From assembly GCA_020137815.1 (NCBI GenBank), contig CM035357.1, positions 558,001 to 622,000 of the forward strand: 64,000 bases of DNA, given 5' to 3'. The translations under genes were made by a program, and so were the position numbers. The number at the start of each line of letters is the position of its first letter. Within the stretch, counting starts at the first letter, position 1. Shown one piece after another: positions 76-62,810 of this stretch. The notes under the pieces were generated by a model, which saw only the letters and a program-made list of their open reading frames with translations, had not been told where the DNA came from and did not search any database. Source of the DNA: Hormiphora californensis. Taxonomy: Eukaryota; Animalia; Ctenophora.

Positions 76-22882
<22,807 letters not shown>

Positions 22883-36927: not shown

Positions 36928-39900
36928 CTACTTATCCACTTTCCAGATTCCAATGGTTCCATCCGCTGACCTAGAGCCGGTCACGACCACCTTATCTCCA
37001 TTTTCCTTTGTCAAAGCAACAATGCACGGTATCAAATCCGAGTGTGCTTGATCAATAGCTACTGTCCACTTTTTGGTAACCAAATCATAAACATGAAGTG
37101 CACACGAACGAGAACTTAGTATTAGCCTGCCACACTTTTCAATTGACGGTGGGTTAATTTCCATCAGCATCATCCCATCATATGCATATGCATCATATGT
37201 AGGTGGTGCGATGGTATAAAAGCTTATTCCGGGTGTAGGTGGCTCAATTGTCTCTAGTACACCCCAATGCTTGATGTAAAGAATCGTTCCTGACCGAGTA
37301 ACTCCGAAAACTGCATCATTAATGTTTCCATTGTGCGAATATGAGATTGGACGCATTGAAGTAAGGGTCGGTAACTGTTCATTTTCATACCATGTAATGA
37401 AACCAGGATACTCCTCAGGAAAAATCGGATCGTCCGGATAAGCAGTATCAAACAAGGGAGCCCATTGTAAAATCTTCCCCTGAATAGATATGCCAACCTT
37501 CCAATCGTCCCAACGAGCCACGCATGACACTGGCTCACCCACATTTGCAGATTTGCATTCTTCCTCAACCGAGTTATACGAAGACCACAAAAGAACCTCA
37601 CCTCCATCAGACACAATAGCAGGATTAGTTAATATTGCAGACATCCCAATTATTCTTTGGCCTTTCATTTTGTTCAATGGAAACGTTTTGTAGCTGTAGT
37701 TGCCAAACTTTCGTCTTCCTCCTCCACTTTCAATTTCATATAAGCTACAAGCTTGTCGGAATTGCAGTGTTACGTATAAATTTCCTATGGTACAGCACGC
37801 ACCAAACAACTCCCATTCCTTTGGGTTTGTTGAAGTCGTCATGAGCTTCAGAGTCCCAATAACTGTGTTATCCTCAACCGAAACTTTATAAATAGTACAA
37901 CTCCTAGTCCCCACATACACATTCCCTCTCGCCCCTGCTACCACAAACACAACAGTCTCTTGTTGATCAGGATCAGGTCTGAATTTGGCCAGAACATGTT
38001 CTGTGGAGGATGGTGGTTGAACAGGCGACTTCCTAAACGCCAGGACCTCAGCATGCCGGACCGCCTGTCTGTAGAAAGAAGATCTCCCAGAGGTTGAATC
38101 GACCTCAACTATCTCACCCTGTTTGGCTTCATAAGCTACTAGGGCTTCATATAGAAGGATATTACCGACCACTTCTTGAATGATGCTCTGGTTTTTGGTT
38201 AGGGTGTACCTACTCAACCCGCATATTACCTCCTCCAGTATAATAACCCAGTGTGTGGCATGTCGGATGTTTACTGCTTCTTTCTGGTCCCCGTTACGAA
38301 GTTTGAATTGTAGACTTGTGGCCGTTTTAAGTTTGAAGTTACTCACCTCTGATAGGGAGATGGAGTCCACGATTTGACCGGTAATCCGGTGTATAAAATA
38401 CAATCGGAACACCGTGCAAACAAGAGTTATGGAGTTCAGTTGGGTGGAATCAGCCGGTTGGGAGATTTTCACAAAACATTCCAACATGTTTGGTTTGTGA
38501 TGCAAATTAAATGGTAGATTCCGCACCAGACTGTCCTTTAGTCCACCCCACAGGGACAGAAAGGACGTCCAATCCTCTCCACTAACTTCACCTCGAGAAT
38601 CCTTGAGAAGATCAAACACTTTCTCCCCCGCTGTGTGGTCTCTTGTCACCCCCATTTCTTTCAGAACCTCAGAGATTGTCAGCCTGTTCCACGTTTTGTT
38701 CAACTCTATATTCGGCATGACAGGTTGGGCAGTAGAAATGGAGTTGAAGAGGGGTGCCCAGACGGGCTGGCCAGCAAACGGCTGATCCCTAATCATGCCT
38801 AACAGATCGGGGTGTTTTCTAAGACGTTCCATCAGTGCAAATACCGAGGGTCCGGGGAAGAATGCTGCTCCTGCTACCTCAAAGATCTTGTTGAGGGTGG
38901 TAAATGCTGACAATACCAACCCATCTTTTAACAGGAGTTGTGACTTGATGTACAGAAGGGATGACAGTGTTGCAGGGTTGTGTTGATGTTCTGTTACTAA
39001 ACAATCAACCGACAGCAGGTTGGGTGAAACAGTTATTGGTGTTCTTTCTAGTCGGGACCTGATAAAACTGTCTGGGCATGCTCGAACCTGTTCCATCGTT
39101 GTGGTTTTCTTCAAGAGTGGTGTTTTGAGCGAATGGGTCAGGGAGGATACCATGATGTTTCCACTCAGTTGGTCGTTAGAAGAGGTGGGACAGGACATTA
39201 ATTCAGGGAAGATTTGATCTCCAATTAACTCGATCAGAATCTTCTGAAAGAAAACTAGAATTTTCAGCTCCGTTCGACGCTTGAACTCTGCCTTTTCACG
39301 TTCATAATCTGCCTGACTTGTAAAGCACTGCCCAATAATACTTATCTCAAAGTCAAGGCTAGATCTCGGAATACACTGTTCAAATTGTGTAACTTTATAC
39401 TCCAGTGTCCTTATCAAACCGTCCGCAGTACACCCCAAATTAACCTCCCCCTCATCAATGTTCACAACCACGATATCACCCCTAGCAGGCATCTCTTCTA
39501 GAATCCCGCTTTCAGCTCCTAAAATGTACTGGCCAACTGGGGCCTCCAGAATCAGGTACAGGGCTTCTGGGAGGGTGGGGAGATAGGTAACTTGCCAATC
39601 AAGGGGCTTGATATATGACAGGAAAGTCTCGATCATTAGGACTCTCAGTGGGTTGTTATCACTTACAAACACTATTTGTTGTTCGGAGATGATACTGGCA
39701 ACAATTTGAAGGATCTGTAGGTGTGTGAAGTAGTAGAAGGGAAGTGTTAGGGGTAGGTCTCCTGTCCCGGGTAGAAGAGGCGGGGTGAGAGTTAAGGAGA
39801 ATTTTGGTATGGGAATCACAATGTTATCCCCGGCAGGTATCACAATGTTTGACAGTGTTTTCAACATGTCCTGTACCTCGAAATCCCAACTACCTTCATC

Positions 39901-40278
39901 AGTTAGGTTGTGTGAAAGCACTTGGAGTAGGTCCGTCATCAATCGAAATCTACGGTAGGCAGAGAAAAGATGGAAATTACATCCGCCGATCTGAAGTATA
40001 AACACATAAACCCGTGACCCATCTTCTGACGTTAGAACACCGTATCCCACAGTGGGGCTCCCACCAGGTTCTATATGTTTCTTCTCCCCGACCAGACAAA
40101 TCTTCTCAACATCCTCTACCATGCTCCATGTTAGAGGAGGTGAAATTAGTGAGTTGTCAATGGTAGGATGTTTGATGATGGTAGAGGCTGAGACTAGGGA
40201 CCGGGTGCCTTCTGATCTGGTGACAAGGCACGTTTCACAGAGTGTTGGGAGGGCAACATGCTGGCTATCATCAGTCAT
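36928..40278 (-). CDS. DENN-domain + C-terminal WD40 protein (DENND3-like), copy 1, one 3.35-kb exon
   Basis: uDENN-like VLTSEDGSRVYVF; cDENN SEQQIVFVS...IKPLDWQVTYLPTLP...LEAP..YILG...DIVVVNID; terminal WD repeat AHSDLIPCI...TGSRSADGTIGIWK. Acceptor ttccag|gatATG just upstream (exon starts 40281). Confidence 0.82.
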   Translation of the reverse strand: MTDDSQHVALPTLCETCLVTRSEGTRSLVSASTIIKHPTIDNSLISPPLTWSMVEDVEKICLVGEKKHIEPGGSPTVGYGVLTSEDGSRVYVFILQIGGCNFHLFSAYRRFRLMTDLLQVLSHNLTDEGSWDFEVQDMLKTLSNIVIPAGDNIVIPIPKFSLTLTPPLLPGTGDLPLTLPFYYFTHLQILQIVASIISEQQIVFVSDNNPLRVLMIETFLSYIKPLDWQVTYLPTLPEALYLILEAPVGQYILGAESGILEEMPARGDIVVVNIDEGEVNLGCTADGLIRTLEYKVTQFEQCIPRSSLDFEISIIGQCFTSQADYEREKAEFKRRTELKILVFFQKILIELIGDQIFPELMSCPTSSNDQLSGNIMVSSLTHSLKTPLLKKTTTMEQVRACPDSFIRSRLERTPITVSPNLLSVDCLVTEHQHNPATLSSLLYIKSQLLLKDGLVLSAFTTLNKIFEVAGAAFFPGPSVFALMERLRKHPDLLGMIRDQPFAGQPVWAPLFNSISTAQPVMPNIELNKTWNRLTISEVLKEMGVTRDHTAGEKVFDLLKDSRGEVSGEDWTSFLSLWGGLKDSLVRNLPFNLHHKPNMLECFVKISQPADSTQLNSITLVCTVFRLYFIHRITGQIVDSISLSEVSNFKLKTATSLQFKLRNGDQKEAVNIRHATHWVIILEEVICGLSRYTLTKNQSIIQEVVGNILLYEALVAYEAKQGEIVEVDSTSGRSSFYRQAVRHAEVLAFRKSPVQPPSSTEHVLAKFRPDPDQQETVVFVVAGARGNVYVGTRSCTIYKVSVEDNTVIGTLKLMTTSTNPKEWELFGACCTIGNLYVTLQFRQACSLYEIESGGGRRKFGNYSYKTFPLNKMKGQRIIGMSAILTNPAIVSDGGEVLLWSSYNSVEEECKSANVGEPVSCVARWDDWKVGISIQGKILQWAPLFDTAYPDDPIFPEEYPGFITWYENEQLPTLTSMRPISYSHNGNINDAVFGVTRSGTILYIKHWGVLETIEPPTPGISFYTIAPPTYDAYAYDGMMLMEINPPSIEKCGRLILSSRSCALHVYDLVTKKWTVAIDQAHSDLIPCIVALTKENGDKVVVTGSRSADGTIGIWKVDK

Positions 40279-41037
40279 ATCCTGGAACAGAAACGAGTTT
40301 AGGGTGCGTTAGACGATCAATTCAAAATGGTGGTCTATCTAGTACTTTTACGTTGATTATTCATTATTTAATGATGTTCTAACTGATGATAATAGATACG
40401 ACTACTAATTTCTCATTAATTAGGGGATAATTATCCCTTCAGTAAATCGATAACAGGCAAATAGTCGCAGTCCTGTCGACATCTACACTTCAAAACTCCG
40501 AATTTTCGGTTTAAAGTGAGAGTGGACCGGATCAGAATTGATCTCAGACAAAAAATTGAGCACCATTTCAAAAATCACCGCTTGGGCTGATACACCTTGG
40601 TATCCTCTACAAATCCCCAAAATTTCAGCCTTCTAGCCCTAAAATTAAATTTTAGGAACCTTAAAAACCGCGATTTAGGGTCCTCTTTTTTCCAACTTTG
40701 AGCCTCAAAGTTTGAGTTTGGTCGCGCACGGTGTCTATGTCACCAACTGTCGTTTTAGTTTCAATAACAACCGTGTCCTGTCCTTTCCATATTTGCGCAC
40801 CGTTTTTCTTCCGCACGTTAGATCTTTTCCCTTGATTTGCCACTCAGTTACACTTGTCCCACGACATACAAACACACTAGCATTGGGGAAAGGTAGAGAA
40901 ATAACCCTAATCCACAATGTGACATAATAATATTTCTCTTAGAGTGGTCATCTGACATAATCCAACGTGGGATTCAACGTGGAATTCGACGTGGAATTCG
41001 ACGAGGAATTCTACCAGATCAGAGAGACGCGCCGCAC

Positions 41038-41918
41038 TGGGGGGAGACACACTGAGGTTGGTCGCGTGCGTTCAACTCTCAACCTCGCGACACACACTGA
41101 AGTTCGAAGTTCGAAGTTTCGCGGAAAAGTTCGAAGTTTCGCGAAAACCCATTTTCGGCTGAGAAATCATTTGTAAGATGCTAGTTTATTTACTGTTACA
41201 TCTCTCAAGGTGTCCTCTATCAATACCGGGTCAATTTCACCGTTTTTAAAATTTTGGGTGAATTGGAACAACTGTGAGGCGGGAGACACACTGAAGTTGG
41301 GCGCGCTCGTTCAAATCTCAACCTTGCGACACACACTGAAGTTCAAAGTTCGAAGTTTCGCGAAAACCCATTTTCGGCTGAGAAATCATTTGTAAGAGGC
41401 TAACTTATTTACTGGTACATCTCTCGAGGTGTCCTTTATCCATACTGAGTCAATTTCACCGTTTTTGAAATCCGGTCATAGTGGTCCTAATTCACCAAAA
41501 ATTATAAAAACGGTGAAATTGACCCGGTATTGAAAAAGGACACCTCGAGAGATGTACCAGTAAATAAACTAGCATCTTACAAATGATTTCTCAGCTGAAA
41601 ATTGGGTTTCGCGAAACTTTGAACTTTTCCGCGAAACTTCGAACTTCGAACTTCAGTGTGTGTCGCGAGGTAGAGAGTTGAGCGCACGCGACCAACCTCA
41701 GTGTGTCTCCCCCCTGACCGGATTAGCCAAAAATTTAAAAACGGTGAAATTGACTCAGTAAGGATAAAGGACACCTCGAGAGATGTACCAGTAAACAAGT
41801 TGCAAAAGATTTCTCAGCCGAAAATGGGTTTTCGCGAAACTTCGAACTTCGAACTTCAGTGTGTGTCGCGATGTTGAGATTTGAACGAGCACGCTCAACT
41901 TCAGTGTGTCTCCCCCCA
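41038..41918. mobile_element. Foldback-like TIR element (ggggagacacactga family)
   Basis: Inverted ends and internal inverted duplications. Related copy at ~52797-54160. Confidence 0.7.
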
Positions 41919-41954
41919 CTAAGCAAATACTGTCACGCTTCAATTATTTTCTCT

Positions 41955-41997
41955 AGTTTCAAACTTTTCAACACTACTTTAAACAAATTAATTTGAG
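41955..41997 (+). other. Spliced-leader-like sequence at the LINE 5' end
   Basis: agtttcaaacttttcaacactactttaaacaaattaatttgag, 42/43 identical to 47591-47633. Resembles the published ctenophore SL as I recall it (unverified). Confidence 0.75.
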
Positions 41998-42146
41998 GTT
42001 CCGTTCAACTACTCCTCGTTAATCTTCTGAGAGCTCTGCTCAATCCATCTCTTTTCTAAAGACAAGACAAGTCTGGTGTTCCTGTCTCCCTCTACATTGA
42101 GCAAGCCTTAGGAGACCTCGTTGAGTCAAATCCGGGAAGCCAAATC

Positions 42147-43490
42147 TTGGTGGAGCGGTCCCTCGCGTCACTGTTACAGGATAGAATGTCGGGTGTGGCA
42201 CCCCAGTATGGAAATGGAATGACACGAACGAAGAAAGATTATGAAGGTGAGTTACTTGGCACGAGTTTCTCTGACAGATGTAAAGGCAGTACAGTGGTGA
42301 AGTGCCTGGAAGAGGGAAGAATGACCCCGCCGGATGGACCTACCAGAGAACACCTATGGAGAATGATTGTTATGTGCTACAACATGCTTCCTGACACATC
42401 TCGGTGTGCAACCCTATCTTCTGAGTCTGGAGTTTCGTTCTCGTGTGATGACCTGAAGGACAGTTTCTCGAAACTGAAGCAAGACCTGATTGATAGCCTC
42501 CCTGGACTTGTAGCCCCAAAAGTGAGTGAAATATTGAAAGTTAGCCAAGAGGAGAATGGAAGTGGTACCAGTCGAAGTATTGATCACCTGGCTAAGAAAC
42601 CATCACCACCAACCCCTGTCAAACGGTATGTAAATATCAAAGACACAAGTGATGAAGGAGTGACCCCTATGTGTGAGGAGAAATGGACCACTGTGGTGAG
42701 ATCGAAAGTGGAGAAGGCGTTGAAGAACATTCCTGTTCTTGATACTTCCGTGAATAGGAAGCACACTCAATTGTTCTTTGAGACTGATGATGATCTGAAG
42801 GAGGCAGAGAAGGCTCTATCACCTTTTCTGGATGTCACTCCGGTAGTTGAGAAACAGAAGAAGAGAGACCCTCGACTGATGATTTCTGATCTTGATCAGG
42901 ATCTATTGAACAAGGATGCGCTGATGGATGCCATCCTTAGTGATAAAAATGAGGGAATTAAGAGGCTACATCAGGCGGGGCAGGCGATCAATGTTGTACA
43001 CGTCAATATCCCAGGGAAGTATGCAGTGATCAAGGTTGCACCCGAAATTCGGACAACGATTGCCAACAACCGAGACAGGATTTTCCTGAAACTACGACAG
43101 CATATTGTGAAGGACAGATTCTATGTGACACAATGCTTCCATTGTCAGCGATATGGACATGTTGCAGGATCCGTTTACTGTCCTAACAAAGATAAGAGTC
43201 CCACCTGTGCATTCTGTTCAGGGGACCATGACACCAGACAGTGTAATGCGAAGAAGGACAATGATCTTGGTAGAATGAAGTGTGTCAACTGTGATGTTGG
43301 AGGTAGCAAAGAGGATAAGAGATATGCGAAATCTCACCCAGCATCAAGCAACTTGTGTCCGCATTATGTGAATGCTAGAGGACGACTCATGGAGAACACA
43401 AGTGGAGTCACAAAGGAGCGAAAAAACTCCTATCTGACGAGGGCGTGGGAAGATCTGAAAGTAAAGAGACGTGGAGGATCGGTACATTAA
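42147..43490 (+). CDS. LINE ORF1 (Gag-like, CCHC zinc knuckles)
   Basis: QCFHCQRYGHVAGSVYC, CAFCSGDHDTRQC, CVNC...HPASSNLC. The first ATG is probably at 42186 (MSGVAPQ). Confidence 0.85.
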   Translation: MVERSLASLLQDRMSGVAPQYGNGMTRTKKDYEGELLGTSFSDRCKGSTVVKCLEEGRMTPPDGPTREHLWRMIVMCYNMLPDTSRCATLSSESGVSFSCDDLKDSFSKLKQDLIDSLPGLVAPKVSEILKVSQEENGSGTSRSIDHLAKKPSPPTPVKRYVNIKDTSDEGVTPMCEEKWTTVVRSKVEKALKNIPVLDTSVNRKHTQLFFETDDDLKEAEKALSPFLDVTPVVEKQKKRDPRLMISDLDQDLLNKDALMDAILSDKNEGIKRLHQAGQAINVVHVNIPGKYAVIKVAPEIRTTIANNRDRIFLKLRQHIVKDRFYVTQCFHCQRYGHVAGSVYCPNKDKSPTCAFCSGDHDTRQCNAKKDNDLGRMKCVNCDVGGSKEDKRYAKSHPASSNLCPHYVNARGRLMENTSGVTKERKNSYLTRAWEDLKVKRRGGSVH

Positions 43491-46400
43491 ATGTACACTC
43501 CATTCAGAATAAAACGTCTGGGGTCATTACACATCTTGAGGATAAGAAATGTGATATCTAACTATATCTAATGCAAATTTGCATGGAAATGTAACACCCT
43601 ATCGTCAATGTGACGACGTGATCCGTCAGTGTGACGACGTGATCCGTCAGTGTGACGATGTGATCCGTCAGTGTGACGACGTGATTCGTAGGTATCACGT
43701 ATCACACGTGTTGAGAACTGCTTGCGACTTGAGGGGTCACATCACATGTATAAAAGGGAGAGAAAGAGAAAAAAAGAGAGGGATCACATCACATAGCAGA
43801 CAGGCAGAGAGAAAAACATAGAAACAGACCCCTCGATTTGCGATCGGTACGATCGCCCCAGTTTTGCTAGTATGTCTAATTCAGGAAACATACCTAAAGA
43901 ATACGGATACAGCTAAACTTCAGGAGATACGAGATTATGGCTGGAATATCTTTTCATCACCAAGAGCGGAGAGAGCGGGAGGAGGAATTGGTATTCTCTA
44001 CCGGGATGGAGTGAAGGTCAGGCTGTCACCTGTTCGAAATTTTCTGTCTTTTCAGATACAGGAGGTTTTAATTGGGGACGGTGCCGATCTCACTCGGTTA
44101 TGTAACATTTACAGACCCCCCTATACGGGTAAAGCTCGGTTTACTGAGGCGAAGTTCCTGGATGAATTCGCGGATTATCTCTCTGAACTGGTGTCAAAAA
44201 CAGGTCTTCCTCTGATCATGGGTGATTTTAATTTCCAGTGGCAGGATGGGAAAAATTTCTACACCAGAAAGCTAGCTGAACTCCTGGACTCTCTGGAATT
44301 TTCTCAGCTTGTTCCTAGGCAGCCTACCCACAATCGTGGAGGTACACTTGATCTAGTGGTTTGCCCGAAGGAAGTGGAGGAAAAAGTCAAATCCTTGGAG
44401 ATTTACCCTGATGGGACTGAATCCGATCATTTCCTAGTCTTGAGTGAGGTTTCCCTGGAAACCAAGCATGGCGACATGCAGGACCGAAATCGTGTCAATA
44501 CCTACAGAGACTTCAAATCAGTGGACCCAGTTTTGTTTACTAAAGCCGTTAGAGGACTGAATCTTGAGGATCGTATGCTGGAGGACTCCCCTGAAGAGAA
44601 CTTTGAGATCTATGAGCGAGAACTAGAGGAATTAGTGGATACTACTGTCCCATTGAGGAGGAGAAAGAAAGTTAAGAAGCTTCGCCCGTGGAGAGACAAT
44701 GAGGAGGTCAGACAGGCACTTAGACTCCGTCGGTGTGCTGAGAGGGCGTGGGAGGGTAATAAAACCCCCATCACGAAGAAGCAGTACAATGCTATGAAGA
44801 AGATGTTTGGAAAAGTTGACAAGGAAGCGAGGATTAACTACGTCAAAGCAGATCTCGAAGAATCTAAAGGGGACTCCAATGGCCTACAGAGGAAACTCAA
44901 CCGACTGCTGGGAAAAAGTGAGGTAGTACTACCTGAAACAGGATGTGATCGTAAACTTGCTGAGGATTTTGCGGACTTCTTTACTGGTAAAGTTGAGAAA
45001 ATCAGAAATTCTGTTACTGCGGAGGAGCATGCTTATGAGGATGTGGAATCTCTTGAGGACTCGGTTAGGAATTGTACGTTCGAGGAATTCAGGGAAGTCT
45101 CTTGTGAGGAGATTAAGAGGATAGTGAAGGATATGGCGGATAAGACGTGTGATCTGGATCTGATACCAACGTGGATGATTAAAGAGTGTATCGAAGTTTT
45201 TGCTCCTCTGTTTACAAGAGTTATTAACTCCTCTCTTCGCAAAGCTGTTGTTCCAGAGACGTTTCAGCAAGCCTTTGTTTTTCCCACCATTAAGAACCCT
45301 AATGGGGATAGGGACAGCCTATCTAACTATCGCCCGGTATCGAACCTACCATTTATCTCAAAAGTTCTTGAGAAGGTGGTACTTGACCAGCTCAACGAGT
45401 TCCTTCAGGAGAATGACTTACTGAACCCTCACCAGTCGGGGTACAGGGTAGGCCATAGTTGCGAGACTCTACTTATGGGAATGTTTGATGACCTTTTACA
45501 GGAAATGGACAAGGGTAATGTTGTTGCCCTTCTTCTTTTGGATATGTCGGCTGCCTTTGACACTGTGGATCATTCTAAGCTTGTGGACGTTCTGAGTAGG
45601 AGGTTTGGAGTAAGAGGAGCAGCCCTTCAGTGGTTTATCAGTTATCTTGGATCGAGGAACTTCAGAGTGAACGTGCGAGGAGAACTATCAAGGATGATTT
45701 ATTTGATATGTGGGGTACCCCAAGGATCCCTCCTTGGTCCAGTCTTGTTTCTTCTCTATGTGGAGGAACTTCAGGATCTGGTGCGTGCATATGGGCTTAA
45801 AATTAAGCTATATGCAGATGACTCACAGATTTATGTGAGTCTGGTTCCCTGTGATGAAGACCAATGGAAAGGAACGAAGAGGAATGTTGAGGAATGTCTT
45901 GATCGCCTCAAGGCATGGATGGTCAAGCACTGGTTGAAATGCAATGAGTCGAAGACGGAACTTCTTATCCTGGGTAAAAGTAGTGCTATCGATAAGCTTA
46001 CTTTTGAACCGTCGGTTAGGTTTGGGGATGTGGATATCGGTCCTATTGACTTCAAGGGTACTTCGGGCAAGACTCTGGGTATTTACATGGATGAAAACTT
46101 GACTTTGGAGCGTCAGGTGAACAGTGTGAGAAAACATTGTGGAATGCTGTTGAAGAATTTATGGCAGGTCAATCGTTGTCTGGACTTCTCCACCAAAGTT
46201 CTCTTGGTGAAGCAGCTTGTTATCTCCCGTCTGGATTATTGTAATATCCTTTATGGAGGTCTTCCAAAGAAGCTCATTGCCCGCCTTCAGAAGGTGCTCA
46301 ATTCCTGTGTTAGGTTCATCTACGGACTTCATGGTCATCAAGATGATTACCTGCCCTACCTGAGGGAGACTCACATTCTCCCTATTGAGCAACGTGTTGT

Positions 46401-46719
46401 CTTCAAATCATGTCTTATGGCCTACAAGATCATACATGGAAGTGCTCCAGACTACCTCTGTGAGCAAATACCTGCGGACAATGTACTGGATGTACCCCGC
46501 CGGACCAGAGCGACTACTGTGCCCGATCTCTTTAAGCTCCGGTACCCCAAACTGTCGAGTGTGAATGCCAGTTCTAAACTGAGGAAGAGGAGACCGTCAG
46601 TTCTCCTACCGGACCTTTGGAATGCCCTCCCCCTCGATCTGAGGTCGTTGACCACTGTGGAATCGTTTAAGACCCGTCTCAAGACAAGACTGTTCGTGGA
46701 ATCCTTTGGGGCTGACTAG
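43421..46719 (+). CDS. LINE ORF2, APE endonuclease + reverse transcriptase (N-terminus disrupted by Helitron 43557-43870)
   Basis: Removing the Helitron restores WRIGTLNVHSIQNK...CDICLIQET. Also GGGIGILY, IYRPP, MGDFN, SDH, NYRPVSNLPFISKVLEK, LLDMSAAFDTVDH, GVPQGSLLGP, YADD. Confidence 0.92.
43557..43870 (+). mobile_element. Non-autonomous Helitron
   Basis: Inserted between A and T with no TSD. Starts TC, ends CTAG, with a hairpin gcgatcg-gta-cgatcgc at 43840-43856. Confidence 0.9.
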
Positions 46720-47589
46720 TTGTGTCTTTCCTCTTTCCAGATTTCCCCTATCGCTATCCTATCACTCGCTGTACTGTCTATCAGGTAAGACGTGTGTTTG
46801 TACTGTGTGTCCCTCGTGACAAGTTTTTCTAGCATATCTTTTTGGGTTTGAAGCACGAGTGTCTGAGTGTGTAATACTATTTTTATTCAGTGTTCAGTTT
46901 CCGCTTTTTCCTGGGCGATGTCTGTGTTGAGGGTGGTGTCAGATTTATCTGAACCTTTTTTGATCTGATAAAGTTTTTTGGAGATGTGTAAAGGTTGTAG
47001 AGGATATTTTTTGAAGCTATATTTTTTGTCTTCTTACCATTTATGTCTGTTATGAATCCGATTGTATTTCTTCCATCTTATGAGAGCAGGTTAATTTGGT
47101 TTTTACCACCGTTTTTGAATCTAATTTTGGTTGAGTGTGTGAGTAAACTGCTCTGATTATCCCTCAGTGGCAGTATTAGCTATACTATGCTGTCCCTGGG
47201 GGATCTGGGCAGGATACAAGTCTAGATATTATTATTATTATTAGTTAGTCTTTACCATTTACATCTCTCTCACTACGAATGCGTGGCACATCCCACGTCG
47301 AATTTCTCGTCGAATTTCACGTCGAGATATGGCAATTATGTCGGATGACCACAGTTACATAATCGATTTATAATACAAATCAGTTTTATCATCAGGAGCC
47401 GTGAACATAATCGTGAACCCAGCATTATTGTCAGTTTCCGGTTTCCCATTTCTGTACTAATTTCTGTACTACTTATCCACTTTCCAGACTCCAATGGTTC
47501 CATCCGCTGACCTAGAGCCAGTAAGCCGGTAACGACTTGGTGATATAGACACCGTGCGCGACCAAGATTGAGCACCAGGTGTCTATATC

Positions 47590-47633
47590 GAGTTTCAAAC
47601 TTTTCAACACTACTTTAAACAAAATAATTTGAG
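47590..47633 (+). other. Spliced-leader-like sequence at the 5' end of the ORF1-only insert
   Basis: gagtttcaaacttttcaacactactttaaacaaaataatttgag begins exactly at the insertion boundary. Confidence 0.75.
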
Positions 47634-47688
47634 CAGGTTGATATGGTGATGTGACCGCCCCAAAGGGCAGAAAAGTGAAACGCTGATA

Positions 47689-48724
47689 ATGAAGCCGATG
47701 TATGAAGATAAAAGATTGGATAATATTCTTCGCCTACCGTACGAGGGCGATAACCCCAAGATAAAACAACTGATCGAATCCATTGATGACTTTGTTTTGG
47801 GAGTTGAACGGCTGCATTGGGCTGCTGTTCCCGAACAACAGATAAGTACTACACCCGAGAACGTTAGTCAATGCTATAATTCCATCAAATATGCACCTGC
47901 GAGGGATTTTACCCCTGATTGCTCGAGCCCAACCGAAAATAACATGGGGACATTCTTCAAACATCGTCTCAAGGACCTTTCTCCAAAACAAGTTGTTGAT
48001 GTCACCACCAACCTCTTTGTTTCCAGTGCTAAACTTGCTCAAGCAGCGATGAACAATTTGAACACCGTAATCACTGCAGAAAAACTCGAGAAACAACTCT
48101 CTGCGTGCAAAGAAGAGCTTGAACGAAATCGTGTTTTGGTCATTGAACTGCAACAAACGGTCATCAATGCCCAGAAAGAACAACTGAGCTCAGTGGAAAC
48201 GTCAGTGCAGAAGGTGAAAGCCTACTCGACAGTCCTGGCTCAAAACTATGCCGCTGGCCGCAGCCTCCCCTATTATGAAAAAGCTACCAACTCCCCCTAA
48301 GCCACCAACTTCGAAGCCTCTTTCTCCTACAGTAGTACCCCAGACAAATCGAGAGAAGAACTTGGTAATATTTGGGCTCCCAGAATCAACTGAGAATGCT
48401 GATAGAACCAATATGGATGAACTATTTGAAGAACTGAACGAGAAACCGAAAGTTGCTAACATGAAACGTATCGGTGAGAGAAACGAGGAACGCCCTAGGC
48501 CGCTCTTGGTATCTCTTGAGAAGAGAGCAACCCTTTTGGCGATCCTGAAGAAGGCACGGCAGCTCAAAGAATCCAAAAAACACTTTTCCATATATTTATC
48601 ACCGGATCTTAACCCCTCCCAACTAAAGGAGCGAAAAGCTCTGCTGGCCACCTTGAAACGGGTTCGGACAGATGATCCAAGTGGCAATTATTACATCAGA
48701 AACAATGTGATCCAAGTCGGATAG
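47689..48724 (+). pseudogene. ORF1p-like gene with one frameshift (ORF1-only insert)
   Basis: 47689-48300 (coiled coil, KAYSTVLAQN) plus 48248-48724 (REKNLVIFGLPE, RIG..RPRPLLVSL, IYLSPDL, YYIRNN). Homologous to 17296-18285. Confidence 0.78.
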
Positions 48725-48975
48725 CGAACTGAACTGTTTCTATATATGTTACCCCGCTTTAGGTAACTGCCGATGCTTTTAGCCTCTCGGCCTTGTAGGA
48801 TATATATATACTTAACTATATATGTCTATAGTGTAAGAGCGGGAAGAGTCTGTTAAGAACTCTAATATAAATTGTGATGTTCACCAAGGTAACGACCACC
48901 TCGTACCCATTTTCCTTTTTCATAATCATAGTAAGTAGTAACTATGCACGAATTTAAATCTAAGTTTCTTGATCG

Positions 48976-49041: not shown

Positions 49042-51889
49042 TTACTGTCCAGTGTCCACTTTCCAGACTCCAATGGTCCCATCTGCTGACCTAGAACCGG
49101 TCACGACCACCTTTCCCCCATTTTCCTTTTTCATAGTAACTATGCACGGTATTAGATCTGAGTGTGCTTGGTTGATAGTTAATGTCCACTTTTTGGTAAC
49201 CAAATCATAAACATGAAGTGAACATGAACGAGAACTTAGTATTAGTCTGCCACACTTTTCAATCGACGGTGGATTAAATTCCTGCATCGGTATCATCCTA
49301 TCATAAGCGACCGTAGGTGGTGCGATGGTGTAAAAGCTTATTCCGGGTGTAGGTGGCTCAATTGTCACAGGAGCACCCCAAGACTTGATGTAGAGAATCG
49401 TACCAGACCGAGTAACTCCAAAAACTGCATCATCATTGCTACGATTGGAAACTGAAAGTGGAAGCATTGAAGTAAGGGCAGGTAACTGTTCATCTTCACA
49501 CCATGTCATGAAATCAGGATGACTACATTCAGCGTTAAGTGGATATATGTTCCAAATATAAGCAGCACTTGATGAGGGTCCCCATTGTAAAATCTTTCCC
49601 CGAATTGATATGCCAACCTTCCAATCGTCCCAACGAGCCAAGCATGAAACTGGCTCACCTACATTCACAGATTGAGTCAGTTTTTCATCCAAAGACCACA
49701 GAAGTAACTCACCTCCATCCGACACAATAACAGGCATACCTTCCATCGCAGACATACCAATTATTCTTTGGCCTTCCATTCTTTTCAGAGGAAACGTTTT
49801 GTAGCTGTAGCCAAACTGTTTTCTTCCCCCTCCGCTTTTGATTTCATATAAGCTCCAAGCTTGCCTGTATTGAAGTGTTACATATAAAATATTCATAGTC
49901 CAGCACGCACCAAACAACTCCCAATCTTTCGGATTCGTTGAAGTCGTCATGAGCTTCAGAGTCCCAATAACTGCGTTATCCTCAACAGAAACTTTGTAAA
50001 TAGTACAACTTCTAGTCCCCACAAAAACATTTCCTTCGTACCCCGCTACCACAAACACTACAGTCTCTTGTTGGTCTGGATCAGGTCTGAACTTGGCCAG
50101 AACGTGTTCGGCATGCCCAACTACCTTTCGGTAGAAGGAAGATCTCCCTGAGGTTGAATCCATCAATGGGAATACCGAGGGTCCGGGGAAGAATGCTGCT
50201 CCTGCTACCTCAAAGATCTTGTTAAGGGTGGTGAATGCTGGCAAGACCAACCCATCTTTTAACAGGAGTTGTGATTTGATGTACAACAGTGATGACAGTG
50301 TTGCAGGGTTGTGTTGATGTTCTGTTACTAAACAATCAACTGACAGCAGGTTGGGTGAAACAGTAATTGGTGTTCTTTCTAGTCGGGACCTGATAAAACT
50401 GTCCGTGTCTGGGGAAGCTCGAACCTGTTCCATCGTTGTGGTTTTCTTCAAGAGTGGTGTTTTGAGCGAATGGGTCAGGGAGGATACCATGATGTTTCCA
50501 CTCAGTTGGTCGTTAGAAGAGGTGGGACAGGACGTTGACTCAGGGAAGATTTGATCTCCAATTAACTCGATCAGAATCTCTTGGAAGAAAACTAGAATTT
50601 TCAGCTCCGTTCGACGCTTGAACTCTGCCTTTTCCCGTTCATAATCTGCCTGACTTGTAAAGCACTGCCCAATAATGCTTATCTCAAAGTCAAGGCTGGA
50701 TCTCGGAATACACTGTTCAAATTGTGTAACTTTATACTCCAGTGTCCTTATCAAACCGTCCGCAGTACACCCCAAATTAACCTCCCCCTCATCAATGTTC
50801 ACAACCACGATATCACCCCTAGCAGGCATCTCTTCTAGAATCCCACTTTCAGCTCCTAAAATGTACTGGCCAACTGGAGCCTCCAGAATCAGGAACAGGG
50901 CTTCTGGGAGGGTGGGGAGATAGGTAACTTGCCAATCAAGGGGCTTGATATATGACAGGAAAGTCTCGATCATTAGGACTCTCAGTGGGTTGTTATCACT
51001 TACAAACACTATTTGTTGTTCGGAAAGGATACTGCCAACAATTTGAAGGATCTGTAGGTGTGTGAAGTAGTAGAAGGGAAGTGTTAGGGGTAGATCACCT
51101 GTCCCGGGTAGAAGAGGCGGGGTGAGAGTTAGGGAGAATTTTGGTATGGGAATCACAACGTTGTCTCCTGCAGGTATCACTATGTTTGACAGTGTTTTTA
51201 GCATGTCCTGCACCTCGAAATCCCAACTACATTCATCAGCTAGGTTGTGGGAAAGCACTTGGAGTAGGTCCGTCATCAATCGAAATCTACGGTATGCCGA
51301 GAAAAGATGGAAATTACATCCGCCAATCTGAAGTAAAGTCCGATTTTTAATAATGTGAACGGGGGGCGCGCAAAAAACTTTCCCACGCACCGTGGGAAAG
51401 TTTTTTTTCGTTTTGTTTCGATCATTTCTCTGGCTCCTGATAAGATAAAGACTTGATCTTGGTTGCATTGAAAAGGTCTTAAAATTATCTTTCCGATACT
51501 TCCGAGATCAAGTCTTAAGATTGTCAAGAACAGAATTTAGCACGCGCAAATAGAATTAAGTGGAATTAAGTGCGCGCCCCCCGTTCACATTATTAAAAAT
51601 CGGACTTTATAAACACATAAACCCGTGACCCATCCTCTGAAGTTAGAACACCGTACCCCACAGTGGGGCTCCCACCAGGTTCTATATGTTTCTTCTCCCC
51701 GACCAGACAAATCTTCTCAACATCCTCTACCATACTCCATGTTAGAGGCGGTGAAATTAGTGAGTTGTCAATAGTAGGATGTTTGATGATGGTAGAGGCT
51801 GAGACTAGGGATCGGGTGCCTCCTGATCTGGTGACAAGGCACGTTTCACAGAGTGTTGGGAGGGCAACATGCTGGCTATCATCAGTCAT
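49042..51889 (-). pseudogene. DENN+WD40 copy 2: internally deleted and interrupted by a MITE (pseudogene unless the MITE is spliced out)
   Basis: N-terminus near-identical to copy 1. In-frame deletions of 243 and 16 codons, divergent WD40 region, and a MITE at 51336-51607. Confidence 0.7.
51336..51607. mobile_element. MITE with TA TSD inside DENN copy 2
   Basis: TIR aagtccgatttttaataatgtgaacggggggcgcgc. The empty site gaagtataaac is seen in copy 1 (~39995). Confidence 0.85.
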
Positions 51890-52039
51890 ATCCTGGAACA
51901 GAAATAAAATATTGTCTTCATTCCAACAGGCACAAGAAGATAAGAATCAGTGGAGAAATGACGGAGTCGCGGTACAAAATTGGCAAACGTTGCTGGCCCC
52001 CACGCGCAGCGCGGGATAAGGCAGCGCTTTTCAAGGTAC

Positions 52040-55815: not shown

Positions 55816-57664
55816 TTAAAGTTGCATTATCAAATCTGCGAACAGTCTGACAGAAAAAAGGACAAAGAAGTGGAAAATTAATAATCTTCCAATAGTTACT
55901 CTGTCGCCACTCCAGCTTCTACAAGTTCCAAAGCTGCCTTTGGTTCAGGCTGACAGGCCAGGAGTGTTAGCATTTTCCTGTGGACCTGAAGAATTCAAAT
56001 CATTAATTCTTGGCTGAAATCCAATCTATCAGTATCATCATGATAAATTGCCTTGGGGCCCAGAGAGACTGGTGGATCTATCAAAGTTAAGCTTGGCAAA
56101 CACAATCCGGGGTGTGTCACCATGGCAACCCCCTTCAAAATCCCATGACAACCCCCTTCAAAATCCGATTTGTCACCATGACAACCCCCTTCAAAATCCC
56201 ATTTGTCACCATGACAACCCCCTTCAAAATCCCATGTGTCACCATGACAACCCCCTTCAAAATCCCATGTGTCACCATGACAACCCCCTTCAAAATCACA
56301 TATGTCACCATGACAACCCCCTTCAAAATCCCATTTGTCACCATGACAACCCCCTTCAAAATCCCATGTGTCACCATGACAACCCCCTTCAAAATCCCAT
56401 GTGTCACCATGACAACCCCCTTCAAAACCACATATGTCACCATGACAACCCCCTTCAAAATCCCATTTGTCACCATGACAACCCCCTTCAAAATCCCATG
56501 TGTCACCATGACAACCCCCTTCAAAATCCCATGTGTCACCATGACAACCCCCTTCAAAACCCCGTGACAACCCCCTTCAAAATCCCATGTGTCACCATGA
56601 CAACCCCCTTCAAAATCCCATGTCTCACCATGGCAACCCCCTTCAAAATCCCGTGACAACCCCCTTCAAAATCCCATGTGTCACCATGACAACCCCCTTC
56701 AAAATCACATATGTCACCATGACAACCCCCTTCAAAATCCCATGTGTCACCATGACAACCCCCTTCAAAATCCCATGTGTCACCATGACAACCCCCTTCA
56801 AAATCCCATGTGTCACCATGACAACCCCCTTCAAACCCCATGTGTCACCATGACAACCCCCTTCAAAATCCCATGTGTCACCATGACAACCCCCTTCAAA
56901 ATCCCATGTGTCACCATGACAATCCCCTTCAAAACCCCATGTGTCACCATGACAACCCCCTTCAAAATCCCATGTGTCACCATGACAACCCCCTTCAAAA
57001 TCCCATGTGTCACCATGACAAGTGACAACCCCCTTCAAAATCCCATGTGTCACCATGACAACACCCTTCAAAATCCCATGTGTCACCATGACAACCCCCT
57101 TCAAAATGCCATGTGTCACCATGACAACCCCCTTCAAAATCACATATGTCCCACAATTACCTTGACGTGGATCTCGTGGTGTTTAAATATCTCCCCATCT
57201 ATATTCCAACAACTGCATTTTTCACATTCCAGCGCATCCCGGGGATCCTCTAGACAGTCCCGGATATGATCAGATGATGAGTCGGGGGTTGTCGGTTGTC
57301 GGTGGTTACAGTCACCACGGAAACGGAATTCCGTTACCCGATGGACGTCCACTAGATCACCCGTAAACTGCAAAACGGTTAACGGATGTCATGAAAACTT
57401 TCGAACTGGCGATGGTTTGTTTTATGTCACGTGATGCCCAAATATGGCATGTCACGTGATGTCAAAATATGGTGTGTCACGTGATGTCCAAATATGGTGT
57501 GTCACGTGATGCCCAAATATGGTGTGTCACGTGATGCCCACACTTACTGGTTTGCTAAAGAAGGCTGTGTTGAAAAGGTACTTGAAGTATCTCATTCCAC
57601 TTGCTTGTCGGTGGATTATCAAGTCAAGACACCCGTCACCAAGATGTGCCGAGGGGGAGAGACC
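55816..57664 (-). CDS. CERK: 3' exons of a ceramide-kinase-like (DAGK/SphK family) gene; 5' part not located
   Basis: Exons 57664-57548, 57367-57161, 55985-55900, 55846-55816 give GLSPSAHLGDGCLDLII..., VDVHRVTEFRF, SCWNIDGEIF...IHVKVHRKML. These match recalled CERK motifs GLSPxAHLGDG, VEVYRV and SSWNCDGE...VRVH. Confidence 0.8.
56112..57147. repeat. 33-bp minisatellite (~31 copies) filling a CERK-like intron
   Basis: Unit gtgtcaccatgacaacccccttcaaaatcccat. Confidence 0.95.
57424..57540. repeat. 25-bp tandem repeat (~4-5 copies) with CACGTG cores
   Basis: Unit gtgtcacgtgatgcccaaatatggt. Confidence 0.85.
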
Positions 57665-57666
57665 CT

Positions 57667-60600
57667 GGGAGGATATAGGATGTGAGGTGGTACTGCAAGG
57701 GGGACAGACCCTGATAAAGGGATAAGAGGTGATACAAGGGGGACAGACCCTGGGAGGATATAGGATGTGAGGTGGTACTGCAAGGGGGACAGACCCTGAT
57801 AACGGGATAATAGAGGTGATACAAGGGGGACAGACCCTAATAAAGGGATAATAGAGGTGATACAAGGGGGACAGACCCTGATAAAGGGATAAGAGGTGAT
57901 ACAAGGGGGACAGACCCTGATAAAGGGATAAGAGGTGATACAAGGGGGACAGACCCTGATAAAGGGATAAGAGGTGATACAAGGGGGACAGACCCTGATA
58001 AAGGGATAAGAGGTGATACAAGGGGGACAGACCCTGGAAGGGATAAGAGGTGATACAAGGGGGACAGACCCTGGAAGGGATAAGAGGTGATACAAGGGGG
58101 ACAGACCCTGATAAAGGGATAAGAGGTGATACAAGGGGGACAGACCCTGATAAAGGGATAATAGAGGTGATACAAGGGGGACAGACCCTGATAAAGGGAT
58201 AAGAGGTGATACAAGGGGGACAGACCCTGATCATGATAAAGGGATAATAGAGGTGATATAAGGGGGACAGACCCTGGAAGGGATAAGAGGTGATATAAGG
58301 GGGACAGACCCTGGGAGGATATAGGATGTGATACAAGGGGGACAGACCCTGGAAGGGATAATAGAGGTGATACAAGGGGGACAGACCCTGATAAAGGGAT
58401 AAGAGGTGATACAAGGGGGACAGACCCTGATAAAGGGATAAGAGGTGATACAAGGGGGACAGACCCTGATAAAGGGATAAGAGGTGATACAAGGGGGACA
58501 GACCCTGATAAAGGGATAATAGAGGTGATACAAGGGGGACAGACCCTGATAAAGGGATAATAGAGGTGATACAAGGGGGACAGACCCTGATAAAGAGATA
58601 AGAGGTGATACAAGGGGGGGGGGACAAACCCTGAGAGGGATAATAGAGGTGATACAAGGGGGACAGACCCTGATAAAGGGATAAGAGGTGATACAAGGGG
58701 GACAGACCCTGGTAAAGGGATAAGAGGTGATACAAGGGGGACAGACCCTGATAAAGGGATAAGAGGTGATACAAGGGGGACAGACCCTGGGAGGGATAAG
58801 AGGTGATACAAGGGGGACAGACCCTGATAAAGGGATAAGAGGTGATACAAGGGGGACAGACCCTGATAAAGGGATAATAGAGGTGATACAAGGGGGACAG
58901 ACCCTGATAAAGGGATAAGAGGTGATACAAGGGGGACAGACCCTGATAAAGGGATAAGAGGTGATACAAGGGGGACAGACCCTGATAAAGGGATAAGAGG
59001 TGATACAAGGGGGACAGACCCTGATAAGAGGGGATAAGAGGTGGTACAAGGCCCAAGGGGGACAAACCCTGATAAAGGGATAAGAGGTTATACAAGGGGG
59101 ACAGATCCTGGAAGGGATAAGAGGTGATACAAGGGGGACAGACCCTGGTAAAGGGATAATAGGTGATACAAGGGGGACAGACCCTGATAAAGGAATAATA
59201 GAGGTGATACGAGGGGGACAGACCCTGGAAGGGATAAGAGGTGATACAAGGGGGACAGACCCTGGTAAAGGGATAATAGGTGATACAAGGGGGACAGACC
59301 CTGATAAAGGGATAAGAGGTGATACAAGGGAGACAGACCCTGATAAAGGGATAAGAGGTGATACAAGGGAGACAGACCCTGATAAAGGGATAAGAGGTGA
59401 TACAAGGGGGACAGACCCTGGAAGGGATAAGAGGTGATACAAGGGGGGACAGACCCTGGAAGGGATAAGAGGTGATACAAAGGGGACAGACCCTGGTAAA
59501 GGGATAAGAGGTGATACAAGGGGGGACAGACCTGATAAAGGGATAAGAGAGGTGATACAAGGTGGACAGACCCTGGTAAAGGGATAAGAGGTGATACAAG
59601 GGGGACAGACCCTGATAAAGGAATAAGAGGTGATACAAGGGGGACAGACCCTGATAAAGGGATAAGAGGTGATACAAGGGGGGACAGACCCTGATAAAGG
59701 GATAAGAGGTGATACAAGGGGGACAGACCCTGATAAAGGGATAAGAGGTGATACAAGGGGGACAGACCCTGATAAAGGGATAAGAGGTGATACAAGGGGG
59801 ACAGACCCTGATAAAGGGATAAGAGGTGATACAAGGGGGACAGACCCTGATAAAGGGATAAGAGGTGATACAAGGGGGACAGACCCTGATAAAGGGATAA
59901 GAGGTGATACAAGGGGGACAGACCCTGATAAAGGGATAAGAGGTGATACAAGGGGGACAGACCCTGATAAAGGGATAAGAGGTGATACAAGGGGGACAGA
60001 ACCTGATAAAGGGATAAGAGGTGATACAAGGGGGACAGTCCCTGATAAAGGGATAAGAGGTGATACAAGGGGGACAGGCCCTGATAAAGGGATAAGAGGT
60101 GATACAAGGGGGACAGACCCTGATAAAGGGATAAGAGGTGATACAAGGGGGACAGACCCTGATAAAGGGATAATAGAGGTGATACAAGGGGGACAGACCC
60201 TGATAAAGGGATAAGAGGTGATACAAGGGGGACAGACCCTGATCATGATAAAGGGATAATAGAGGTGATATAAGGGGGACAGACCCTGGAAGGGATAAGA
60301 GGTGATATAAGGGGGACAGACCCTGGGAGGATATAGGATGTGATACAAGGGGGACAGACCCTGGAAGGGATAATAGAGGTGATACAAGGGGGACAGACCC
60401 TGATAAAGGGATAAGAGGTGATACAAGGGGGACAGACCCTGATAAAGGGATAAGAGGTGATACAAGGGGGACAGACCCTGATAAAGGGATAAGAGGTGAT
60501 ACAAGGGGGACAGACCCTGATAAAGGGATAATAGAGGTGATACAAGGGGGACAGACCCTGATAAAGGGATAATAGAGGTGATACAAGGGGGACAGACCCT

Positions 60601-62810
60601 GATAAAGAGATAAGAGGTGATACAAGGGGGGGGGGACAAACCCTGAGAGGGATAATAGAGGTGATACAAGGGGGACAGACCCTGATAAAGGGATAAGAGG
60701 TGATACAAGGGGGACAGACCCTGGTAAAGGGATAAGAGGTGATACAAGGGGGACAGACCCTGATAAAGGGATAAGAGGTGATACAAGGGGGACAGACCCT
60801 GGGAGGGATAAGAGGTGATACAAGGGGGACAGACCCTGATAAAGGGATAAGAGGTGATACAAGGGGGACAGACCCTGATAAAGGGATAATAGAGGTGATA
60901 CAAGGGGGACAGACCCTGATAAAGGGATAAGAGGTGATACAAGGGGGACAGACCCTGATAAAGGGATAAGAGGTGATACAAGGGGGACAGACCCTGATAA
61001 AGGGATAAGAGGTGATACAAGGGGGACAGACCCTGATAAGAGGGGATAAGAGGTGGTACAAGGCCCAAGGGGGACAAACCCTGATAAAGGGATAAGAGGT
61101 TATACAAGGGGGACAGATCCTGGAAGGGATAAGAGGTGATACAAGGGGGACAGACCCTGGTAAAGGGATAATAGGTGATACAAGGGGGACAGACCCTGAT
61201 AAAGGAATAATAGAGGTGATACGAGGGGGACAGACCCTGGAAGGGATAAGAGGTGATACAAGGGGGACAGACCCTGGTAAAGGGATAATAGGTGATACAA
61301 GGGGGACAGACCCTGATAAAGGGATAAGAGGTGATACAAGGGAGACAGACCCTGATAAAGGGATAAGAGGTGATACAAGGGAGACAGACCCTGATAAAGG
61401 GATAAGAGGTGATACAAGGGGGACAGACCCTGGAAGGGATAAGAGGTGATACAAGGGGGGACAGACCCTGGAAGGGATAAGAGGTGATACAAAGGGGACA
61501 GACCCTGGTAAAGGGATAAGAGGTGATACAAGGGGGGACAGACCTGATAAAGGGATAAGAGAGGTGATACAAGGTGGACAGACCCTGGTAAAGGGATAAG
61601 AGGTGATACAAGGGGGACAGACCCTGATAAAGGAATAAGAGGTGATACAAGGGGGACAGACCCTGATAAAGGGATAAGAGGTGATACAAGGGGGGACAGA
61701 CCCTGATAAAGGGATAAGAGGTGATACAAGGGGGACAGACCCTGATAAAGGGATAAGAGGTGATACAAGGGGGACAGACCCTGATAAAGGGATAAGAGGT
61801 GATACAAGGGGGACAGACCCTGATAAAGGGATAAGAGGTGATACAAGGGGGACAGAACCTGATAAAGGGATAAGAGGTGATACAAGGGGGACAGTCCCTG
61901 ATAAAGGGATAAGAGGTGATACAAGGGGGACAGGCCCTGATAAAGGGATAAGAGGTGATACAAGGGGGACAGACCCTGATAAAGGGATAAGAGGTGATAC
62001 AAGGGGGACAGACCCTGATAAAGGGATAAGAGATGATACAAGGGGGACAGACCCTGGAAGGGATAAGAGAGGTGATACAAGGGGGACAGACCCTGATAAA
62101 GGGATAAGAGGTGATACAAGGGGGACAGACCCTGATAAAGGGATAAGAGGTGATACAAGGGGGACAGACCCTGATAAAGGGATAAGAGGTGATACGAGGG
62201 GGACAGACCCTGATAAAGGGATGAGAGGTGATACGAGGGGGACAGACCCTGGTAAAGGGATAAGAGGTGATACAAGGGGGACAGACCCTGGAAGGGATAA
62301 GAGGTGATACAAGGGGGACAGACCCTGATAAAGGTATAAGAGGTGATACAAGGGGGACAGACCCTGATAAAGGGATAAGAGGTGATACAAGGGGGACAGA
62401 CCCTGATAAAGGGATAAGAGGTGATACAAGGGGGACAGACCCTGATAAAGGGATAATAGAGGTGATACAAGGGGGGACAGACCCTGATAAAGGGATAAGA
62501 GGTGATACAAGGGGGACAGACCCTGATAAAGGGATAAGAGGTGATACAAGGGGGACAGACCCTGATAAAGGGATAATAGAGGTGATACAAGGGGGACAGA
62601 CCCTGGAAGGGATAAGAGGTGATACGAGGGGGACAGACCCTGATAAAGGGATGATAGAGGTGATACAAGGGGGACAGACCCTGATAAAGGGATAAGAGGT
62701 GATACAAGGGGGACAGACCCTGATAAAGGGATAAGAGGTGATACAAGGGGGACAGACCCTGATAAAGGGATAAGAGGTGATACAAGGGGGACAGATCCTG
62801 GAAGGATATG
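57667..62810 (-). repeat. 39-bp satellite (~130 copies) derived from the CERK-like exon acceptor
   Basis: The minus-strand unit cttatccctttatcag|ggtctgtcccccttgtatcacct mirrors the real junction atatcctcccag|ggtctctccccc at 57664. Confidence 0.92.

Follow-up and report, generated by a model that had tools for sequence, protein, structure and literature searches.

Spliced-leader heads on unrelated ctenophore retroelements suggest reverse transcription of trans-spliced element RNA

The window analysed here is a 64-kb (64,000-nucleotide) stretch of the genome of the comb jelly Hormiphora californensis (assembly GCA_020137815.1, contig CM035357.1, positions 558,001 to 622,000 of the forward strand). 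It contains two different retro-inserts that begin with the same short sequence. One, W1, is a long interspersed nuclear element (LINE). The other, W2, is an unrelated element that has only the first open reading frame (ORF1) of such elements. W3, elsewhere in the window, is a relative of W2. Positions below are those of the window and the features are listed in Table 1. An earlier note on this DNA had described the common head of W1 and W2 as resembling a spliced leader (SL), and had proposed that element RNAs are trans-spliced before reverse transcription.

Our reference for the head was the leader printed for H. californensis in PMC8527503. The head of W1 agrees with the leader at 43 of 43 bases, and the head of W2 at 43 of 44. 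Hence, the likeness noticed earlier is confirmed, and the comparison with published ctenophore leaders that the note had suggested leads to that of Hormiphora itself. Judged by its identity to a leader found at mRNA 5' ends, the 44-mer is the host SL exon. The W1 copy is without the leading G of the leader; base 41954 is T. The leader pattern has exactly two matches in the window, where none is expected (0 in 100 shuffles), and fuzzy searches of the 64 kb with 14- to 20-mers found no third copy. For both copies, likeness stops at the last base of the leader. This is the abrupt end after TTTGAG that had been described, and the intron and upstream region of the SL gene have no good match in the window (best local scores 23-32). 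Since no splice donor, intron or gene promoter accompanies either exon, the copies are not SL RNA genes, pseudogenes or fragments of them. The variant base at 47624, suggested as a marker, is not a clean one; the same variant occurs, in a different context, in one RNA contig from another sample. In H. californensis, the leader is on 56% of Iso-Seq reads and has 718 copies in the genome, with 491 in Mnemiopsis (PMC8527503). In the passage that counts them, those genomic copies are not classified, and long reads are noted to be mis-mapped to them (PMC8527503).

Table 1. Features of the retroelements and their insertion sites (strand given where assigned)
Feature	Position	Strand	Details
ORF1-only relative of W2 (W3)	17165..18402	-	intact 329-aa ORF 17296-18285; no leader, no ORF2
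Older DNA-transposon shell around W1	40944..47352		18-bp terminal inverted repeats
LINE W1	41955..47241	+	apurinic/apyrimidinic endonuclease (APE) and reverse transcriptase (RT); (TAT)5 tail at 47227-47241
Spliced-leader exon, copy 1	41955..41997	+	leader bases 2-44 exact, 43/43; first bases of W1
W1 ORF1	42186..43490	+	434 aa; C-terminal Cys/His knuckle-like motifs by eye
W1 ORF2	43445..46719	+	PF14529/PF03372/PF00078; interrupted near start, otherwise open
Helitron-like insert in W1	43557..43870		314 bp; starts with TC, ends with a hairpin and CTAG; flanked by A and T
Left 9-bp target-site duplication of mini DNA transposon	47528..47536		right partner 48888-48896
Mini DNA transposon, left part	47537..47589		terminal repeat, short interior, first 12 bases of right terminal repeat
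Spliced-leader exon, copy 2	47590..47633	+	43/44 against leader; A for T at 47624
ORF1-only element W2	47590..48882	+	1.29 kb, no poly(A) or repeat tail
W2 ORF1	47689..48724	+	two overlapping frames, 47689-48300 and 48248-48724 (frameshifted)
Mini DNA transposon, right end	48883..48896		right terminal repeat (its last 5 bases), then the right 9-bp target-site duplication (48888-48896)

W1 has the parts of an autonomous APE-type LINE: ORF1, an ORF2 with endonuclease and RT, and a 3' repeat tail. From its C-terminal motifs we take it to be an L2/Crack-like member of the CR1 group. However, ORF2 is broken by a 314-bp insert, presumably Helitron-like by the rules we apply to its ends. Hence, the earlier description of a full LINE holds for the set of parts but not for ORF2, and this copy is dead because the insert interrupts that frame. 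The insert is missing at the same place in L005, a W1 relative that is 94% identical (L numbers denote leader-bearing loci in metagenome contigs, described below). Similarly, P0016, an intact relative of ORF2, aligns in two blocks, 43445-43558 and 43870-46710. L005 carries the same head at another flank and is identical to W1 at 230 of 231 bases over the leader and 5' untranslated region (UTR). ORF1 of W1 is 43-49% identical to its counterparts in L002, L003 and L011, and a Pfam search gave no significant family for any ORF1. Close ORF2 relatives are mostly on contigs of 3.5-5.6 kb. A candidate 5-bp target duplication (41954-58 and 47242-46) overlaps the first 4 bases of the leader, a 5' microhomology. 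W1 was inserted into the older DNA-transposon shell, which itself interrupts a duplicated host segment. The window also holds a 5'-truncated LINE fragment (23686-24840, plus strand), comprising the 3' part of an RT, which matches W1's family at about 40% and has no leader nearby.

W2 had been placed at an insertion boundary, and this stands in part. The outer insertion, bounded by target-site duplications, is a small DNA transposon starting 53 bases before the leader, at 47537. We therefore rejected the leader as the outer boundary; it is nested within. When W2 is removed in silico, a perfect 17-bp terminal repeat of the transposon is restored, which makes the leader the exact 5' boundary of the nested insert. 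Sites paralogous to 47528..47536 are uninterrupted at about 36960-36975 and 49080-49095. One contig of sequencing run X1 is likewise uninterrupted (all runs, numbered X, were examined as Logan contigs). The mini-transposon belongs to a family; a further end lies at 40718-40746, and many different flanks stop at 47537 in runs X1 and X5. W2 is itself a multi-copy family in X1 and X5, which are two samples of one organism, A.

The W2 protein is predicted to contain a coiled coil, an RNA recognition motif (RRM) and a C-terminal domain (CTD). Eleven intact relatives have 318-345 aa; ten are on contigs of 1.0-2.0 kb and the eleventh is without a recorded contig. An 84% relative of the W2 protein is in a Pleurobrachia bachei protein set. 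We used the predicted structure of one relative, P0003, in a Foldseek search (mean predicted local distance difference test score 59.5; 70-82 in the RRM/CTD part). The best match was human L1 ORF1p, with an E value of 1e-5, and the best 11 matches were all human L1 ORF1p. A PDB sequence search with the W2-type ORF1 gave 0 matches, none to L1 ORF1p. Hence, W2 has the single ORF of a non-autonomous LINE, with an L1 ORF1p-type fold predicted at moderate model confidence. The element ends 158 bases past the stop codon without a tail, and the short contigs of its homologues favour an ORF1-only design; alternatively, W2 may be a 3'-truncated insertion. A joint between the leader end and 48372, in one X1 contig, was rejected as too weak (22-base side, likeness 90).

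W2 begins with G (47590), a base that neither the target repeat nor the SL gene accounts for; at this place the gene has C in L008. No letter other than C was called before the leader A of the SL gene in three DNA runs. Copying through an RNA cap gives an extra G. The base was possibly copied from a cap, this being one case against a chance background of about one in four. Separately, a short hairpin-like GC motif, with CAGAAA after it, precedes the ORF in W2 (47650-47675), L006 and L010. The motif is some 20-45 bases past the leader in L006 and L010, and L010 has it although its protein is unrelated to those of W2 and L006. In one X1 DNA contig covering 47591-47621, a leader breaks off after about base 32; a single additional base follows, and then a complete leader. 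An older leader copy may here have received an SL-headed element.

W3 was found by protein similarity, in a tblastn search of the window, and hence independently of the leader. Both of its ends are fixed by an empty duplicate at 12546/12547. At its head are three units containing TCAGTT, which we take to be initiator-like, followed by a polypyrimidine-CAG acceptor (18311) that lies 25 bases upstream of the ATG. An A9 run forms the 3' end; together, this run and the empty site place a true 3' end after ORF1. The W3 protein is 32% identical to P0003. Trans-splicing of a W3-like element would yield a W2-like head without any self-acceptor, but W3 is a single case and too distant to be the source of W2. 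A profile of this kind of ORF1 matched 6435 library proteins at E<=0.001. W2 and W3 together point to an undescribed HAL1-like superfamily in ctenophores.

An exact scan of metagenome contigs, with a 31-base leader core, returned 12 rows and 11 distinct loci; scans of viral contigs and genome contigs gave 0 loci. Six loci are clear retroelements from three protein lineages, one is a probable element, three are mRNA-like and one is an SL RNA gene/5S array. Among the retroelements, L002, L003, L005 and L011 are LINEs of W1's clade, L007 is a LINE of another lineage (ORF2 about 25% identical) and L006 is an ORF1 relative of W2. We rejected L006 as certainly ORF1-only, its contig ending about 110 bases past the stop codon. 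Likewise, L010 was rejected as a confirmed LINE and kept as the probable element; no ORF2 was seen and its protein did not match the other ORF1s. The mRNA-like loci, L001 (cathepsin), L004 (Rpn9) and L009, have host-gene ORFs 1-3 bases after a leader at the contig end. Before the leader of L006 there is an A+T-rich flank loosely like the leader's own 3' half, a likeness that may be chance.

L008 carries the SL RNA gene twice, at a spacing of 778 bp and alternating with 5S rRNA, and in each copy the exon is followed by GT. The spliced leader is thus the product of a small RNA gene whose exon ends at a GT donor. No Rfam family corresponds to this gene, which is covered by DNA contigs of organism A and a second organism, B. 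The SL RNA gene and 5S rRNA, which alternate in a 778-bp unit, occupy 263-381, 693-835 and 1041-1159 of L008, and conserved cover ends about 100 bases past the exon.

With the gene in hand, the element junctions can be placed. In nine of nine SL-headed copies, from three protein lineages and with unrelated flanks, the leader match ends exactly at the splice donor of the SL gene. All seven element loci also carry, without a change, the 10 leader bases that the search pattern did not include, and element sequence follows directly. At the other end, heads start within 0-2 bases of the leader's A. Similar junctions recur in the sequencing runs, four of which were compared with the SL gene. The exon end passes into unrelated sequence in 21 (X1), 15 (X5) and 19 (X9) DNA contigs, with a consensus agreement of about 0.45. 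On the other side, various flanks directly adjoin exon bases 1-3 in the DNA runs (among 24 of 120 loose-end rows). A run presumed to be RNA covers the SL exon and neither the promoter nor the intron. The leader is not the ordinary 5' UTR of one element family, a possibility that the note had raised against itself, since it heads at least three unrelated protein lineages. Even within W1's clade, the four SL-headed subfamilies are only 43-60% identical in ORF1 and 50-67% in ORF2. In the 60 bases after the leader, W1 is 52-57% alike to L002, L003 and L011, where shuffled sequences give 50-52%.

Exact splice-donor junctions in nine of nine copies, across three lineages and with unrelated flanks, argue for splicing before reverse transcription, as had been proposed. 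We conclude that W1 and W2 were likely reverse transcribed from leader-trans-spliced element RNA, and that such copying has likely been repeated in many families. Briefly, element transcripts would receive the leader at an acceptor upstream of ORF1, as ordinary comb-jelly mRNAs do. The LINE RT would then copy the whole capped RNA, fixing the leader in DNA as the 5' end of the element. The repeat tail and candidate target duplication of W1, and the extra G at the 5' junction of W2, count towards a retro-origin. Capture must have recurred because the leader is identical across families with 5' UTRs diverged to the shuffle level; that it stayed the same while the families diverged suggests renewal on more than one occasion. 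In Hydra, about 30% of transposable-element Iso-Seq reads carry an SL (PMC12220107).

Several observations weigh against this interpretation. W3, the sole element found independently of the leader, carries none. Because it used an exact pattern, the metagenome scan that gave the 11 loci was blind to families whose leader has drifted or is absent. For W2, retro-insertion has to be argued from the head, the protein and the clean interruption of a transposon end, because there is no tail. At the RNA level, none of the RNA contigs listed bridges leader and element body. Run X22 covers only leader bins, and X20 only separate pieces. Note that the RNA-labelled runs contained at most 0.07 of the words, so absent bridges are not evidence of absence.

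If element RNAs were trans-spliced, an acceptor is needed in each round. A plausible source, if one short of probable, is leaderless copies with their own start site and an acceptor ending in YAG (Y, pyrimidine), as in W3. More tentatively, the integrated leader's own terminal AG might be used, or the leader might simply be kept under selection without re-splicing; both seem rather doubtful. Use of the terminal AG is at the centre of a cycle that the earlier note set out. Promoterless elements would be carried in read-through transcripts, the leader's terminal AG would be the next acceptor and each round would swap the old leader for a new one, neither adding nor losing sequence. Dinoflagellates do reuse an AG inside a retroposed leader as an acceptor (PMC12014239). 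Such a cycle would account for exactly one leader, identical to the gene exon, on deeply diverged families, and for the similar place of the junction in four subfamilies. Furthermore, the 100 bases that follow the leader contain no YAG in W1 or L005. However, the terminal trinucleotide, GAG, is a poor acceptor, and GAG is rarely used for splicing. Two of the three host ORFs inspected, which are only presumed to be trans-spliced, instead show a polypyrimidine-YAG 2-3 bases before the ATG, as in the spacing of leader-headed mRNAs. In W2, L006 and L007 (three of eight SL-headed element types) a YAG lies 3-6 bases behind the leader; these sites should compete and would vanish once used. The better acceptor in W1 is the first AG of the leader, and its use would stack leaders, yet stacks occur in none of the nine SL-headed copies. 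Given the GAG, the competing YAGs and the lack of stacks, the claim that the integrated leader is the next acceptor is left unsupported. So is the claim of a promoterless LINE. The weightiest evidence against the cycle is W3, a leaderless relative of W2 with a start-like head of its own, made of initiator-like repeats, and an acceptor of the CAG type. Overall, we consider the cycle unlikely.

Alternatively, an ancestor of each lineage may have captured the leader once, by trans-splicing, and passed it on as the 5' end of the element. Transcription would begin at the leader's first A, thereby re-forming an initiator-like site, and selection for translation or for cap-like recognition would keep the leader unchanged. 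Consistent with this, the SL gene start and the W3 head have CAGTTTC in common, a pyrimidine precedes the leader's A in W1 and L005, and unused YAG sites are predicted behind the leader. The cost is high, since 41 bases must remain perfectly conserved in families that are only 43-60% identical in ORF1, and the leader must have been captured independently three times or more. We regard this as improbable. Finally, the leader could be the target of an element that inserts into SL genes, as NeSL, CRE and SLACS do, or the switched template of a chimera with SL RNA. Elements with such targets exist (PMC4640811). However, neither the two window copies nor L002-L007 and L011 have flanks related to the region upstream of the SL gene, and no intron follows at either end. 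W1 encodes an APE rather than a restriction-like endonuclease. It has neither the SL RNA gene insertion nor the enzyme that defines NeSL/CRE-type LINEs. For targeting and template switching alike, it would be hard to see why all junctions fall exactly at the splice donor. This origin is very improbable indeed. Hence, copying from trans-spliced element RNA is the interpretation that we retain.

Parts of this arrangement are known from other systems. Closest are SL-tagged retrocopies in dinoflagellates, where a relict leader (DinoSL) is likewise fixed at the 5' end of reverse-transcribed RNA, and the integrated leader can be trans-spliced again (PMC12014239, which cites Slamovits and Keeling 2008 and Song 2017 on relict DinoSL). 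There, the cargo is host mRNA, re-splicing uses internal AGs and relics are stacked (PMC12014239); here, the cargo is retroelements, the host is an animal and there is one complete leader. Transposon transcripts in Hydra (PMC12220107) and the C. elegans element Cer1 (PMC3315495) also use host trans-splicing, although the full-length genomic RNA of Cer1 avoids the SL1 site. Those reports concern RNA only. In our case the leader is in integrated DNA copies, so spliced RNA was apparently the template. NeSL, CRE, SLACS and CZAR also adjoin an SL exon in DNA, but their targets are SL RNA genes and their endonuclease is restriction-like (PMC4640811), whereas the elements described here are dispersed, of APE type and have unrelated flanks. 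W2 and W3 resemble HAL1 (half-L1) of mammals (PMC5753468) in having ORF1 only, with a predicted L1 ORF1p fold, and by this analogy must borrow an RT. They are not HAL1 proper, which descends from mammalian L1; the host is a ctenophore, there is no sequence match to L1 ORF1p, and the head is a leader or an initiator repeat. R2 and other elements are cut out of host transcripts by ribozymes. The proposed promoterless cycle would work in a similar way, trimming a host transcript to the exact 5' end of the element, except that the spliceosome would do the trimming and add a capped leader. In the literature searched on leaders, LINEs and ctenophores, a scope that left out Repbase and Dfam, no title or abstract reported SL-headed ctenophore LINEs, and the extracts of PMC12460157, PMC12221973 and PMC7986045 contain nothing on them.

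The rest of the window holds host genes and repeats. A long single-exon DENN-domain gene is present as a tandem duplicate (36928-40278 and 49042-51904, minus strand). The second copy is interrupted by 273 bp at about 51335-51608, and the duplication junction carries one end of the mini-transposon family (40718-40746). Two further single-exon ORFs, both on the minus strand and without a Pfam match, are a proline-rich one with a homeodomain-like end (2913-3983) and one resembling a multi-pass receptor-like membrane protein (6359-7444), both judged by eye. There are also two tandem arrays, of a 33-bp unit in 31 copies (56143-57150) and of a 39-bp unit in about 130 copies (57652-62800). Each has minus-strand open frames with no Pfam match.

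Our data suggest that many of the 718 genomic leaders of Hormiphora are retroelement heads, which matters for annotation. The leader is also a ready marker of full-length insertions. More broadly, host RNA processing appears to have been written into transposon DNA across several families. A bolder view, which we consider unlikely, is that whole LINE lineages of comb jellies gave up their promoters, that trans-splicing became the machine that makes their 5' ends, with each integrated leader the acceptor for the next, and that element heads make up a large share of the hundreds of unexplained genomic leaders. If true, any read-through transcript would give an exact, capped, full-length element RNA. 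It can now be asked, in a testable form, whether the LINEs of trans-splicing hosts obtain a new 5' end and cap from the host's leader or depend on a promoter of their own.

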